Below are positions 10,463-46,602 of a stretch of DNA of 48,375 nucleotides, one piece after another. The stretch covers positions 194,082 through 242,456 of IMG/VR virus record IMGVR_UViG_3300038443_000660; one strand, given 5' to 3'. This DNA comes from a virus (taxonomy: Duplodnaviria; Heunggongvirae; Uroviricota; Caudoviricetes). How positions within the stretch are numbered: position 1 is the first letter of the stretch; each line of letters opens with the position of its first letter. The notes beneath the pieces were generated by a model, which worked only from the letters and a program-made list of their open reading frames with translations, did no database searches and was not told where the DNA came from. Made by a program: the position numbers and the translations under genes.

Positions 10463-10484
10463 CCCATTTTTATTAAATAATTGC

Positions 10485-10515
10485 TTGACTCTAGATTTTA
10501 ATTATAGTATAAATA
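10485..10515 (+). promoter_or_regulatory. Composite early/late promoter for tmRNA
   Basis: TTGACT-17-TATAAA, where the -10 lies within a perfect T4 late consensus TATAAATA (10508-10515). Confidence 0.65.
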
Positions 10516-10519
10516 CTAC

Positions 10520-10828
10520 GTTATGTTGAAGGTGACTAAAAGGTAGGCAGGACCGGAAGGGCGGTGCTTCCGCATCTCCACCATGAATACATCGCCACCT
10601 GTTATCGAAGGTGCAACCACGTCCCGGAGTCTGGCCGGTGTACTCATGATGGGGATGAAATAGGATCGACTGATACTAAGTAGGAATCCAGAGTAACCGT
10701 GCGCAAGCTACGATATCGCAAGAAACACTATAAATGCCAACGATAATGTTGCATTTGAGAACCGCCTAGCGGCGTAATCTCATTGGGTTTGACAGTTTTC
10801 CTCGAAACAGAAAAACTGTCATTTTTTA
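10520..10828 (+). ncRNA. ssrA: Circularly permuted two-piece tmRNA (alphaproteobacterial type); tag (A)ANDNVAFENRLAA
   Basis: Acceptor piece ends CATCTCC-A-CCA (10573-10583) after T-loop GGCGGTG. Intervening segment 10584-10650. Coding piece starts GGGGATG at 10651, giving a G3.U70 pair. Tag frame 10736-10777. Terminal hairpin 10790-10821. Confidence 0.93.
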
Positions 10829-26182: not shown

Positions 26183-26263
26183 GTCTTTAACCCTGAAATT
26201 CACTTGACTAATACATGATTCGATAGTATACGATTTTTTAAAAATGTCAATAGGTACAATACA

Positions 26264-26575
26264 ATGAATTATCAACTTTTTATTGATGATGAACGATTTC
26301 CAGCTACAAATGGTTGGGTTATTGTCCGTTCATATAAATCCGCAATCGATTGGATTGAGCGATATGGCTTTCCATATTTTATCAGTTTCGATCATGATTT
26401 GGGATTGGATTCATTAACTGGCTACGATATCGCTAAATGGATTGTGGAATACGATTTGGACCATGACGTGATGGATGAATATTTTCAATTTTATGTTCAC
26501 AGCATGAATCCAATCGGGAAAATCAATATTGAAAAACTTCTGAATTCGTACCTAGATAAAAAATTTCAAAAATAG
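26264..26575 (+). CDS. Cyclic-phosphate-processing receiver (cREC-like) domain protein
   Basis: LFIDDER, WVIVRSY, ISFDHDLG, GYDIAKW and VHSMNPIG motifs. Confidence 0.75.
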   Translation: MNYQLFIDDERFPATNGWVIVRSYKSAIDWIERYGFPYFISFDHDLGLDSLTGYDIAKWIVEYDLDHDVMDEYFQFYVHSMNPIGKINIEKLLNSYLDKKFQK

Positions 26576-26578
26576 TGG

Positions 26579-26607
26579 TTGACAACCGATAAACGATGTT
26601 CTACATT
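26579..26607 (+). promoter_or_regulatory. Sigma70-like promoter for the interrupted tRNA
   Basis: TTGACA-17-TACATT. Confidence 0.6.
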
Positions 26608-26673
26608 ACGGTCATGGTTACGAAACAAGAAGAATTTTACGAATGCAAAGAAATCATTATGAATAAAAGATAA

Positions 26674-26894
26674 CCCGCCTTAGTTCAGTTGGTAGAACAA
26701 CAAGACTGGTAGTAAGAAAAGCAAGTAGCCCGAAAGTATATTTGGGGGTTGCAAACCTTAAATATATAAGTAGACCAAAGCGAAGTATTACGTGGAAGAT
26801 GAATGTCATAGGCAGATAGCACCTGTAATGGCTTAATCTGAAAATCCAGATGAAACCTTGTGTGTCCGTGGTTCAAATCCATGAGGCGGGACCA
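26674..26894 (+). tRNA. tRNA gene (Phe-like body) with a 145-nt insertion in the anticodon loop
   Basis: Acceptor CCCGCCT/AGGCGGG-A-CCA; D arm GTTC-AGTTGGTA-GAAC; anticodon stem ACAAG/CTTGT; variable GTGTC; T arm CGTGG-TTCAAAT-CCATG. Total length 221 nt = 76 + 145. Confidence 0.82.
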
Positions 26895-26898
26895 AAAT

Positions 26899-26936
26899 AA
26901 AATGCCTATCAAACGAAAAATTTGATAGGCATTTTT
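26899..26936 (+). terminator. Rho-independent terminator after the interrupted tRNA
   Basis: aaaatgcctatcaaa / tttgataggcatttt 15-bp inverted repeat. Confidence 0.8.
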
Positions 26937-27007
26937 GCTATTGACATATCACTAATCAGTGATATTCTATCAAACAATCGAATAATATGTTTGAACGGTG
27001 ATAAAAT

Positions 27008-27490
27008 ATGAATGTGAAACTTGCTGCCAAACCGGTAGAAACACCAGTGAATATAGCCAAGTTAATGGTAGAAATGGCTGGCGTTAAGAAAAATGATTCG
27101 GTTCTTGAACCTTCTGCTGGCTTTGGAAAAATTGCTTTGGTGGCAGCATCAGTCGGTGCAAAGGTCACATGTGTCGAATTAAATCAGCATTGCTTTGATA
27201 CACTCAAATCATACAAATATTTTCACAAACTTTATCACAAAGATTTTCTGAAATTTGATACAGAAGAACGCTTTGATGCTGTTCTAATGTGTCCACCACG
27301 GAATGCAATTCCGCATATCGAACACGCCCATAAGTTCGTTAAGAAGGGAAAATCTCTAATCGCTCTGGTTCGAAAAGATTCAGATGGCATGTCGAAATAC
27401 ATGCATAATTTCTTTGAGTTACCGCTTGAAACTTTTATGATGAACGGAGACTATGTTCGTTCTGGTTTCGTAATTCTAAAAGGATTGTAA
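27008..27490 (+). CDS. Class I SAM-dependent methyltransferase-fold protein
   Basis: TP...VLEPSAGFG, CVEL, DFL and FDAVLMCPPR (NPPF position); TTGACA promoter at 26941. Confidence 0.8.
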   Translation: MNVKLAAKPVETPVNIAKLMVEMAGVKKNDSVLEPSAGFGKIALVAASVGAKVTCVELNQHCFDTLKSYKYFHKLYHKDFLKFDTEERFDAVLMCPPRNAIPHIEHAHKFVKKGKSLIALVRKDSDGMSKYMHNFFELPLETFMMNGDYVRSGFVILKGL

Positions 27491-27678: not shown

Positions 27679-27888
27679 ATGGAAGTACCCGAAGAACTTA
27701 AGCAAACTATTTTAAAAGAACTAGAAACCGTTCAGATAAAAACATTGGATGCTACCATAAAAATGGTCGAATCACTCTTGACAAATAAGCAGGGATTTGA
27801 TTTAGATGATTATACTATTACACAATGTGCTAACTTGGTGAGAAATTTACGTGACCGAATTGTTAAAAAGCGTGAATCGGCTTTGTAG
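27679..27888 (+). CDS. Hypothetical protein (start at MEVPE)
   Basis: GGAG RBS. Confidence 0.6.
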   Translation: MEVPEELKQTILKELETVQIKTLDATIKMVESLLTNKQGFDLDDYTITQCANLVRNLRDRIVKKRESAL

Positions 27889-28378
27889 CAAGTTTCCAAA
27901 AATAACTTGGAAACAAGCTGGTGGTTTGCCAGAATGTCCATATTTTTATCGGTACATCATCAATTTTGGCCCATTTGCTATTCGTTTGCACAACTGGCTT
28001 GGTGACGATGACCACCGAGCCTATCACGATCACCCATATTGGTTTCTTACCATCGTTTTGAAGGGCGGCTATACCGATGTTTCACCTAAAAAAGAAACAT
28101 GGGAATATCCATTGGATACACCAATAGAAGTTGTTCATAAGGACATATTAAGAATCGGTTCCATTCGCTTTCGTCCTGCTGAATTCAAACATTCCGTTCA
28201 GGATGTGATTCCCGGTACTTGGACATTGTTGATTTCTGGTAAGCCATCTCGCCGTTGGGGATTTTGGGTTGGTGGCAAGTTGATTAAACGTGACAAATAT
28301 TTTGCGGTTTATGGCCATCATCCTTGTGATCCCGAAGATTCTGGCATTCGTATGAAACCGGGTGGAGAAAGAATATGA
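27851..28378 (+). CDS. Cupin-like (double-stranded beta-helix) protein
   Basis: RLH...DD..AYHDHPYWF...LKGGY...FRPAEFKHSV...WGFW pattern. Confidence 0.65.
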   Translation: MTELLKSVNRLCSKFPKITWKQAGGLPECPYFYRYIINFGPFAIRLHNWLGDDDHRAYHDHPYWFLTIVLKGGYTDVSPKKETWEYPLDTPIEVVHKDILRIGSIRFRPAEFKHSVQDVIPGTWTLLISGKPSRRWGFWVGGKLIKRDKYFAVYGHHPCDPEDSGIRMKPGGERI

Positions 28379-46480: not shown

Positions 46481-46516
46481 CTTGACATGTTTGCACTATA
46501 GTGTATTATACAAATC

Positions 46517-46602
46517 GGCGGTTAGTTCAGGTGAACGTCCCACTTGATCAGTGGTTGCTTGATCACCGTAATTCTCTAGGTTCGAGTCCTAGATAATCGC
46601 CA
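46517..46602 (+). tRNA. Non-canonical tRNA-like RNA (apparent GAT anticodon)
   Basis: GGCGGTTA/TAATCGCC acceptor; GTTC-AGGT-GAAC; CCAC-TTGATCA-GTGG; long variable arm; TCTAGG-TTCGAGT-CCTAGA T arm; promoter TTGACA-16-TATTAT at 46482-46509. Confidence 0.65.

Follow-up and report, generated by a model that had tools for sequence, protein, structure and literature searches.

A conserved tRNA-Phe-shaped phage RNA with a structured insert, paired with a small methyltransferase

Background

Some transfer RNA (tRNA) genes of the Lak megaphages are interrupted by so-called 'enigmatic' introns, which occur in Tyr, Thr and other tRNAs and one of which is itself tRNA-like (Devoto et al. 2019, PMC6784885). 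These introns are the closest published counterparts of the element described here, an interrupted tRNA-Phe gene at positions 26674-26894 (plus strand) of a 48,375-nucleotide (nt) stretch of viral DNA. This stretch, referred to at its full length as the window, forms the final 48 kb of a phage genome that is complete at 242,456 bp and has terminal repeats. This genome encodes a T4-type major capsid protein and 24 ordinary tRNA genes, and its source habitats are soil and rhizosphere metagenomes.

Apart from group I introns, we know of no understood interruption of a tRNA gene in bacteria or their viruses. Two further systems are relevant to the comparison. In the protein-spliced tRNA introns of archaea and eukaryotes, the bulge-helix-bulge (BHB) motif has a 4-bp helix with a 3-nt bulge at either end, one on each strand, and the leader of E. 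coli thrS is a tRNA-mimic translational operator that is bound by ThrRS. The interrupted tRNA-Phe of the window has about 20 homologues in phages of soil and water bacteria. Comparison of these sequences leads us to favour, tentatively and at somewhat less than even probability, the reading that the RNA is a tRNA-Phe-shaped structured RNA which serves as partner, mimic or operator of the methyltransferase encoded next to it.

Results

An interrupted tRNA-Phe gene

The locus encodes a stand-alone RNA of about 221 nt that has the shape of a tRNA-Phe and carries an independently folded domain of 145 nt. Its body is a full class-I tRNA-Phe(GAA) with an encoded CCA end, and ARAGORN, when introns are allowed, reports a tRNA-Phe(GAA) of 76 nt with a 145-nt insert at 26674-26894; with default settings the program makes no call there, and Rfam shows no match even up to E=10 (region 26550-26990 searched). 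Sequence and ARAGORN thus bear out the first-pass annotation, which had described an intact cloverleaf with encoded CCA, a promoter, a terminator and 145 extra nt. The RNA is made up of the following parts:

26674-26704 (+): 5' part of the tRNA-Phe, nt 1-31 (ARAGORN with introns; covariation, 11 sequences), with the acceptor 5' strand at 26674-26680, the D arm at 26683-26698 and the anticodon-stem 5' strand at 26700-26704
26705-26849 (+): 145-nt insert, sited between nt 31 and 32, with a linker A at 26705 and G 26849 as its last base
26706-26709 (+): 5' strand of helix Pa, CUGG, whose partner strand is 26846-26849
26736-26767 (+): hairpin H1, with the palindromic hexaloop UUGCAA at 26749-26754 (folds, covariation)
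26797-26839 (+): 3' hairpin domain, AGAU/AUCU around GUCAU..AUGGC and GCAG-AUAGCAC-CUGU (minimum free energy folds)
26840-26844 (+): second GAA motif (GAAAA), just 5' of the Pa 3' strand
26846-26849 (+): 3' strand of Pa, CCAG (covariation)
26850-26856 (+): 7-nt anticodon loop AUGAAAC, unbroken on its 3' side, with GAA at 26852-26854
26857-26894 (+): 3' part of the tRNA-Phe, consisting of the anticodon-stem 3' strand, variable loop GUGUC, T arm, acceptor 3' strand, A73 and CCA

The acceptor stem (CCCGCCU/AGGCGGG) and the anticodon stem (ACAAG/CUUGU) can be read directly from the sequence. The D arm is GUUC-AGUUGGUA-GAAC and has U20, the variable loop supplies G44 and U45, and the T arm is CGUGG-UUCAAAU-CCAUG. 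Once the insert is notionally removed, the gene shows the cloverleaf, the tertiary-interaction nucleotides, the GAA anticodon, the A73 and the CCA of a canonical elongator tRNA-Phe. What the family does not share with such tRNAs is a U33 within an uninterrupted 7-nt hairpin loop, the loop being broken between nt 31 and 32, although the window copy itself has U33. When the insert is folded alone, UGGA at 26793-26796 can pair with UCCA at 26845-26848 and so rivals Pa.

Two transcription signals flank the gene:

26579-26607 (+): sigma-70-like promoter, TTGACA-17-TACATT, 67 nt 5' of the tRNA
26899-26935 (+): terminator-like 16-bp hairpin followed by TTTTT, 5 nt 3' of the RNA

The TTGACA -35 box is also present 5' of the homologues L160, L161, L165, L166 and L167 (homologous loci are cited by L numbers, phage genomes by G numbers), and similar hairpins lie 3' of the RNA in L148 and L159. 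The insert is single copy in the 242-kb genome, unlike a mobile intron or a miniature inverted-repeat transposable element. Between promoter and tRNA there is a 19-codon frame (ATG at 26614, TAA at 26671-26673), which starts 7 nt past the -10 hexamer, is possibly leaderless and ends directly at the tRNA start; it is not conserved in the short-leader homologues L165 and L166 and may be due to chance.

A shared fold and a fixed insertion site

In the 11 full sequences the cloverleaf and Pa are 99.6% paired, with compensatory changes in 18 of the 25 pairs; no shuffle equals the observed pairing, and slid controls pair at 25-46%. Pa, the 4-bp helix that closes the insert, is 100% paired in these sequences and shows double changes in three of its four pairs, the variants being CUGG/CCAG, CCGG/CCGG, CCAG/CUGG and CCGU/ACGG. 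The layout is invariant and runs from nt 27-31 through a linker of 0-2 nt, the Pa 5' strand, the insert body, the Pa 3' strand and 7 nt to the anticodon-stem 3' strand. Equally invariant is the junction itself, with a G31-C39 pair next to a Pa helix whose first base is C and whose last base is G. That all inserts end in G is also accounted for by this outer C-G pair.

Whereas the 5' linker varies in length, the 3' loop segment is always exactly 7 nt long and reads A-N-G-A-A-R-N. A32 is nearly invariant, which is unusual for a tRNA, position 33 is U in eight, C in three and A in two of the 13 metagenomic members, position 37 is A or G, and GAA alone never changes. In the unspliced RNA the seven nucleotides (A-U-GAA-A-C in the window) bulge out on one side between the anticodon stem and Pa, and these two helices can stack.

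The homologues also fix the register. Because L146 and L165 have no linker and thus lack the ambiguous A, the insert is placed at 26705-26849, between nt 31 and 32. The first-pass annotation had chosen the equivalent bounds 26706-26850, which this placement shifts by one position, and had correctly recognised the Phe register with the loop A-U-GAA-A-C. A second register that it had considered under the group I rule, with an exon ending in U and the anticodon UAA, is contradicted by the homologues, all of which have a 5' part that ends in G31, an unchanging GAA and a class I body.

The inserts as structured RNA

The inserts measure 114-200 nt and form at least four sequence groups that differ in length and architecture, the window insert being grouped with those of L159 and L148. 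For the five sequences of group A, a seven-helix model that includes a GAAA tetraloop hairpin is 95.8% paired with 18 compensatory pairs, which none of 500 shuffles reaches. H1 is common to the window and group A; 9 of its 12 stem pairs are compensatory across seven sequences, and its self-complementary UUGCAA loop is invariant. The covariation among homologous inserts which had been proposed as a check on the first-pass reading is thus present, and the two hairpins named there exist in the folds, one being H1 and the other (26805-26832) lying inside the 3' hairpin domain. A hairpin analogous to this domain, P5/P6, is present in L159 and group A and has a loop of the UAGC type. In each of the 13 metagenomic members the second GAA lies a few nt 5' of the Pa 3' strand; it is not evident in copy 2 of the RNA in the cultured phage CcrColossus.

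The longest motifs that all inserts share are 4-mers; GACGAU and GUUGCA each occur in 8 of 11 inserts, GACGAU being absent from that of the window. No Rfam family, be it an intron or a ribozyme model, matches the window (E<=10) or any of 10 homologue loci (E<=1), none of the hammerhead, BHB and group I features sought by eye fits, and ARAGORN calls no nested tRNA in the insert. The earlier statement that a group I or II core is lacking is thereby upheld, for group I by the Rfam model itself. A pairing suggested by RNAalifold between the invariant group A segment GAUGCCAA and the anticodon-stem 3' strand plus variable loop was dropped, as it shows no covariation and is absent from the other groups. 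Judged from these comparisons, the inserts are functional structured RNA and do not resemble one ribozyme with a fixed core. A unique and unstructured insert, which the first-pass annotation had named as part of the case fatal to its reading, does not apply to about 20 homologues with structured, covarying inserts.

An obligatory methyltransferase partner and an overlapping reading frame

The gene that follows the RNA encodes a small methyltransferase dependent on S-adenosylmethionine:

26941-26968 (+): promoter-like site 5' of the methyltransferase gene
27008-27490 (+): methyltransferase of 160 amino acids (aa), motifs ETP..MV, LEPSAGFG and CPPRN

Its close homologues are a tight subfamily of 14 clusters (scores of at least 200 bits, the next being 136), and every cluster for which upstream sequence is available has an interrupted tRNA-Phe(GAA) directly upstream. 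The complete or near-complete relatives G002, G004 and G005 are without both methyltransferase and RNA. The subfamily motifs, ETP..MV, LEPSAGxG and CPP(R/K)N, are of the amino-methyltransferase type. The nearest matches to the structural model of the enzyme (predicted local distance difference test, pLDDT, 91.9) are base methyltransferases of tRNA, rRNA and DNA (TrmI, Trm11, M.TaqI, TrmN, Dim1), with template modelling scores of 0.66-0.70 that are about equal for the tRNA m1A58, m2G10 and m2G6 enzymes, M.TaqI, Dim1/KsgA and RumA. According to this model the enzyme is a bare catalytic core without a target-recognition domain. In Vibrio and Pseudomonas phages the homologous domain is found inside much larger proteins, at loci that hold only annotated protein-coding genes and at which the RNA was not sought.

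The two genes are not merely neighbours. In nine metagenomic members motif X (P-A-T-E-T-P) begins 14-17 nt past the CCA with no start codon between, variation in this stretch is concentrated at third codon positions, and upstream of it the methyltransferase frame meets no stop across the 3' half of the tRNA as far as ATGs that lie in the insert. In the Rhizobium phage RHph_Y1_11, AGGAGG and an ATG lie 10 nt before the tRNA, and the frame of the coding sequence (CDS) traverses the whole 228-nt interrupted tRNA. Since start or frame thus runs from the insert or the tRNA 5' flank into the enzyme, the unspliced RNA would be the mRNA of the enzyme in these relatives. Excision of the insert would delete the start codon or shift the frame, the latter in RHph_Y1_11, whose insert is 152 nt long. 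A separate downstream start serves the enzyme in the window and in L148, L159, L167 and the Caulobacter and Brevundimonas phages. Neither the strict pairing with the methyltransferase nor the overlap of its frame with the tRNA was part of the first-pass annotation.

Distribution of the family

The carriers are T4-like soil jumbo phages, Caulobacter and Brevundimonas siphophages and one Rhizobium phage. The metagenomic members are L146/L147, L148 (3' end only), L153-L155, L156, L159, L160, L161, L162/L163, L164 (partial), L165, L166 and L167. The cultured phages CcrColossus, CcrPW, Bajun (Brevundimonas) and RHph_Y1_11, which were found by tblastn with the methyltransferase (31-38% identity), contain unannotated copies of the RNA. 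There are two tandem copies upstream of each of CcrColossus gp358 and CcrPW gp366, two upstream of the methylase gene of Bajun, and one in RHph_Y1_11 (MN988558), inside the annotated methyltransferase CDS. The tandem copies occupy unannotated gaps of about 670-700 nt:

CcrPW, L189:1294-1964 (MH588545): two tandem interrupted tRNA-Phe genes
CcrColossus, L190:1291-1964 (JX100810): two tandem interrupted tRNA-Phe genes
Bajun, L191:771-1467 (ON529858): two tandem interrupted tRNA-Phe genes

In the CcrColossus genome paper gp358 is discussed as a possible rRNA methyltransferase, and the only RNA elements reported are tRNAs (PMC3556154).

At the nucleotide level no record of the phage collection is similar to the window RNA, and pattern scans (D arm to T arm; 3' junction; D arm plus H1 loop in metagenomes) returned only chance or adjacent-tRNA matches. 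As a query against IMG/VR the methyltransferase alone found nothing, and an alignment-based search succeeded. Spliced-junction patterns revealed no insert-less allele in IMG/VR or the GTDB representatives, and both tandem copies in CcrColossus and CcrPW retain their inserts. Taken together with the covarying structure of group A and H1, this argues that the insert is under selection of its own.

Among the DNA contigs covering the locus there is no joint or variant inside the RNA. In run X7 a co-occurring strain is about 12% divergent in the flanks (26200-26311 and 27232-27468), yet there is one identical 980-bp contig, 26282-27261, which spans most of the upstream cREC gene, the RNA and the methyltransferase start; this identical block could reflect recent exchange or very strong conservation. 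The pattern scan also showed unrelated IMG/VR phages with tRNA-like genes in which about 40-110 nt separate the T arm from a D-arm-like 5' part as an insert:

L016, about 2043-2176 (= L021): unrelated insert-bearing tRNA-like gene
L029/L033, about 75 nt past their tRNA-Pro: unrelated insert-bearing tRNA-like gene

Neighbouring genes and the host phage

Two further genes flank the RNA-methyltransferase pair:

26264-26575 (+): cREC gene, upstream neighbour, with a predicted cyclic-phosphate-processing receiver domain (PF20274, E 1.9e-26)
27851-28378 (+): conserved 175-aa protein of the same gene block, cupin- or cysteine-dioxygenase-like by language-model neighbours only

Iyer et al. 2021 (PMC7824862) predicted that members of the cREC family act on 2',3'-cyclic phosphate ends and process them. 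No tRNA lies near the cREC homologue loci L005-L013, L144 and L145, and cREC is therefore not a constant partner of the RNA. The 175-aa protein has the motif HRAYHDHPYWF and is 67% identical to that encoded by L146:3829-4314, as compared with 47% for the methyltransferase; it has no Pfam match, and its nearest language-model neighbours are viral 'cysteine dioxygenase family' clusters. In several relatives a protein of 161-177 aa is encoded 3' of the methyltransferase, the sequence comparison covering the one in L146. The 175-aa protein may be part of the same functional block. Pfam searches with the small neighbouring genes were uninformative.

The phage also has an ordinary tRNA-Phe(GAA), located outside the window (G000:C1:82786-82861). 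Its T loop, AUCGAAA (A54), is unusual, and it sits between RNA-ligase genes at 80219-80680 and 84593-85156. Within the window, a permuted two-piece transfer-messenger RNA (tmRNA) is encoded at 10519-10777 (10465-10823; tmRNA_permuted 95.3 bits, alpha_tmRNA 82.1 bits). This alpha-type permuted tmRNA, together with the infection of Caulobacter, Brevundimonas and Rhizobium by the cultured carriers, suggests an alphaproteobacterial host. Far from the main tRNA cluster ARAGORN also reports an odd stand-alone tRNA-like gene, an 86-nt tRNA-Ile(GAU) at 46516-46601 (+) with its anticodon at position 31 and no CCA.

Discussion

What could such an RNA do for the phage? We tentatively see it as partner, mimic or operator of the methyltransferase because the two strictly co-occur, also in the distant homologues of cultured phages, because the unspliced RNA serves as mRNA in relatives, and because the loop is not conserved in the manner of a decoding loop, position 33 being free and GAA fixed. 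Moreover, the phage already owns an ordinary tRNA-Phe(GAA), the enzyme model resembles nucleic-acid base methyltransferases and has no extra recognition domain, and no known splicing machinery or motif applies, all of which point in the same direction. The RNA would be transcribed early from its host-type promoter, would be trimmed like a tRNA, by RNase P at the 5' end and to CCA at the 3' end, and would then act with the insert in place, as a tRNA-Phe mimic bound by the methyltransferase. The enzyme would probably methylate this RNA in or beside the exposed GAA loop. In relatives with the start codon inside or just 5' of the RNA, the fold would be a cis operator, and where gene and RNA overlap, enzyme binding or tRNA-type processing would compete with translation. 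In the window the two genes would be uncoupled by the terminator and the second promoter, so that the RNA would act in trans. One possible gain to the phage would be to protect or retune tRNA-Phe during a host attack on tRNAs. A further thought, which we regard as rather doubtful, is that enzyme and insert-bearing tRNA-Phe form a ribonucleoprotein methyltransferase with the latter as RNA subunit, in which the 160-aa core would depend on the RNA domain, scaffolded by the tRNA, to locate or hold its target and the gene/RNA overlap of relatives would ensure joint production. It is suggested by the bareness of this core as compared with the Vibrio and Pseudomonas phage relatives, which are domains of larger proteins.

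Several observations speak against a role of the unspliced RNA. In the window a terminator stands between RNA and methyltransferase gene, and cis regulation therefore cannot be the role of the RNA there. Most of the others are what one would expect of a true tRNA intron that is removed by proteins to yield a decoding tRNA-Phe, which would then be modified by the adjacent methyltransferase. A host or phage endonuclease would measure from the tRNA body and cut after G31 and before A32, the ends would be healed (cREC, kinase/phosphatase), and a phage RNA ligase would seal them. Notional removal of the insert leaves a flawless, canonical 76-nt tRNA-Phe in every member, with CCA and tertiary-interaction nucleotides kept, and this perfect excision, the constancy of the 7-nt segment in spite of the 0-2-nt linker and the terminal G are, as far as sequences can tell, what a true intron predicts, as is the invariance of the junction (G31-C39, outer C-G pair of Pa). 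U33 is always kept in the four W-type members (window, L148, L159 and L167), and the interrupted gene is the sole tRNA-Phe of the relative G001, whose whole genome is available. The cREC gene adjoins the RNA in four members (window, L146, L161 and L159) and lies elsewhere in G001, the phage genome has two RNA ligase genes above the Pfam cut-off, which fit cut-and-reseal splicing, and phage tRNA introns of an 'enigmatic' kind are on record (Devoto et al. 2019, PMC6784885). Then again, no candidate endonuclease is known, EndA (PF01974) and RtcB (PF01139) being absent from the phage genome, nor is there a BHB motif, since the single-stranded segments lie on the wrong strands and have the wrong sizes. 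The 5' cut of L146 and L165 would have to be made where two helices directly abut, position 33 is A or C in 5 of 13 members, and at least 10 relatives would lose the methyltransferase frame on splicing. The insert is also conserved and structured far beyond the needs of a passive intron, and the ligases do not track the RNA, as G002 has ligases without the RNA and none were found in G006 (85% complete). On balance we consider removal by proteins less likely, though it is the main rival reading. The two readings are not fully exclusive, as one fraction of the RNA could be spliced while the remainder acts unspliced.

Other explanations fare less well. If it served to draw off a host anticodon nuclease or another defence protein that binds tRNA-Phe, as a decoy or sponge does, the RNA would display the Phe anticodon loop and the second GAA on a tRNA body unable to enter the ribosome. 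The fixed GAA next to a freely varying position 33 would suit such a role, as would the second GAA beside Pa in the 13 metagenomic members, and the cREC and RNA-ligase genes of the phage suggest a conflict over tRNA cleavage (PMC7824862). A decoy leaves the strict methyltransferase pairing and the overlapping frame unexplained, however, and CcrColossus copy 2 shows no evident second GAA. Moreover, we know of no tRNA-Phe-specific nuclease. The idea of a tRNA-scaffolded non-coding RNA or decoy, raised in the first-pass annotation, thus stays alive, the decoy being improbable in our estimate. Even less probable is a new class of small self-splicing or self-cleaving RNA whose terminal G acts like the omega-G of group I introns. 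The invariant terminal G and closing C-G pair, the several helices, including the GAAA tetraloop hairpin of group A, and the constant presence of a structured insert would agree with it. No core is common to all inserts, however, the four subgroups diverge widely in length and architecture, neither the window nor the 10 homologues match an Rfam ribozyme or intron, and the 5' part ends in a paired G and not in U.G. The new small intron class that had been proposed from the sequence of the window is hence possible and unproven, with neither a universal insert core nor an insert-less allele. Finally, a degenerate group I intron, a disrupted pseudo-tRNA and a tmRNA-like hybrid are largely refuted and scarcely credible. 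To our knowledge bacterial tRNA introns have so far been group I, the insert does end in G, and a short frame within it ends in a stop codon. Against a group I origin stand the failure of the Rfam group I model on the window (E<=10) and the homologues, the length of 114-200 nt and the lack of a 5' exon ending in U; a pseudo-tRNA is ruled out by conservation with covariation over about 20 loci. The tmRNA-like hybrid, also an idea of the first-pass annotation, meets with a negative ARAGORN tmRNA search, a short frame in the 3' hairpin that has no counterpart in L159, and the presence of a separate, real permuted tmRNA at 10519-10777.

The family is conserved, structured, easily recognised and always coupled to one enzyme. 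Its presence in cultured phages whose hosts are tractable makes the question of phage tRNA inserts testable. If the RNA is spliced, this would be a route of tRNA splicing that is new for the bacterial world; if it stays unspliced, it would be a new tRNA-scaffolded RNA that partners or regulates a methyltransferase, including a protein-coding frame that runs through a folded tRNA. In practical terms, standard annotation leaves 'empty' gaps of 250-670 nt at the RNA genes in published genomes, for instance upstream of CcrColossus gp358.

Comparison with known systems

Like the 'enigmatic' introns of the Lak phages, the present insert lies in the anticodon-loop region of a phage tRNA, matches no intron class or Rfam model, is conserved between genomes and has no demonstrated route of removal. 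Different from them, the family is always Phe, always interrupted at 31/32, without a nested tRNA and tied to a methyltransferase with possible frame overlap. With the group I introns of Azoarcus tRNA-Ile, cyanobacterial tRNA-Leu(UAA) and tRNA-fMet it shares a structured anticodon-loop insert that ends in G. The present inserts do not match the Intron_gpI model with its P3-P7-P8 core, however, their 5' part ends in a Watson-Crick-paired G31 (11 of 11) and not in U.G, the group I exon having there a U paired with G of the internal guide (P1), and the site is 31/32 and neither within nor 3' of the anticodon. Group I introns moreover measure about 205 nt or more, as opposed to 114-200 nt here. 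The 4-bp length of Pa recalls the BHB introns, but both of the unpaired segments beside it, of 0-2 nt on the 5' strand and of 7 nt on the 3' strand, lie at the same end of the helix.

Operators of the thrS type resemble those relatives in which the start lies in or beside the RNA, in that an anticodon-arm mimic stands at the start of the gene of an enzyme that binds tRNA, or in the present case is predicted to do so. The present mimic is, however, a whole cloverleaf with CCA, and in the window it is a separate gene with its own terminator. The stable RNAs C and D (rnaC/rnaD) of T4 are likewise small stable RNAs of a T4-type phage, and rnaC ends in the T-arm-like CCGGGUUCGAAUCCCGG. Unlike the present RNA they show no D arm, Phe anticodon loop or terminal ACCA, and ARAGORN finds in them no comparable interrupted tRNA; at a lowered threshold it forces a tRNA-Leu-like call on the 3' two-thirds of rnaC (L168:1909-2047, species 1 RNA). 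YrlA, whose tRNA-like module is bound by Ro/Rsr, and tmRNA are also tRNA-shaped non-coding RNAs with a large extra domain, in repair and rescue settings. YrlA, whose own ends form the stem that Ro binds, has the opposite topology, the ends of the present RNA lying at the acceptor stem, and TROVE/Ro (PF05731) is absent from the three carrier genomes G000, G001 and G006; compared with tmRNA, whose tRNA-Ala-like domain has no anticodon arm and which also carries a tag reading frame, the present RNA keeps the D arm and the anticodon stem, in line with the negative tmRNA search. The RNA thus belongs neither to the group I or BHB introns nor to the tmRNAs or Y RNAs, and it is no relative of T4 rnaC/rnaD. 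In the literature we found no description of the RNA-methyltransferase family, which is set apart from the Lak introns by its Phe identity, its 31/32 site, an insert that is not tRNA-shaped and an obligatory methyltransferase with an overlapping frame.

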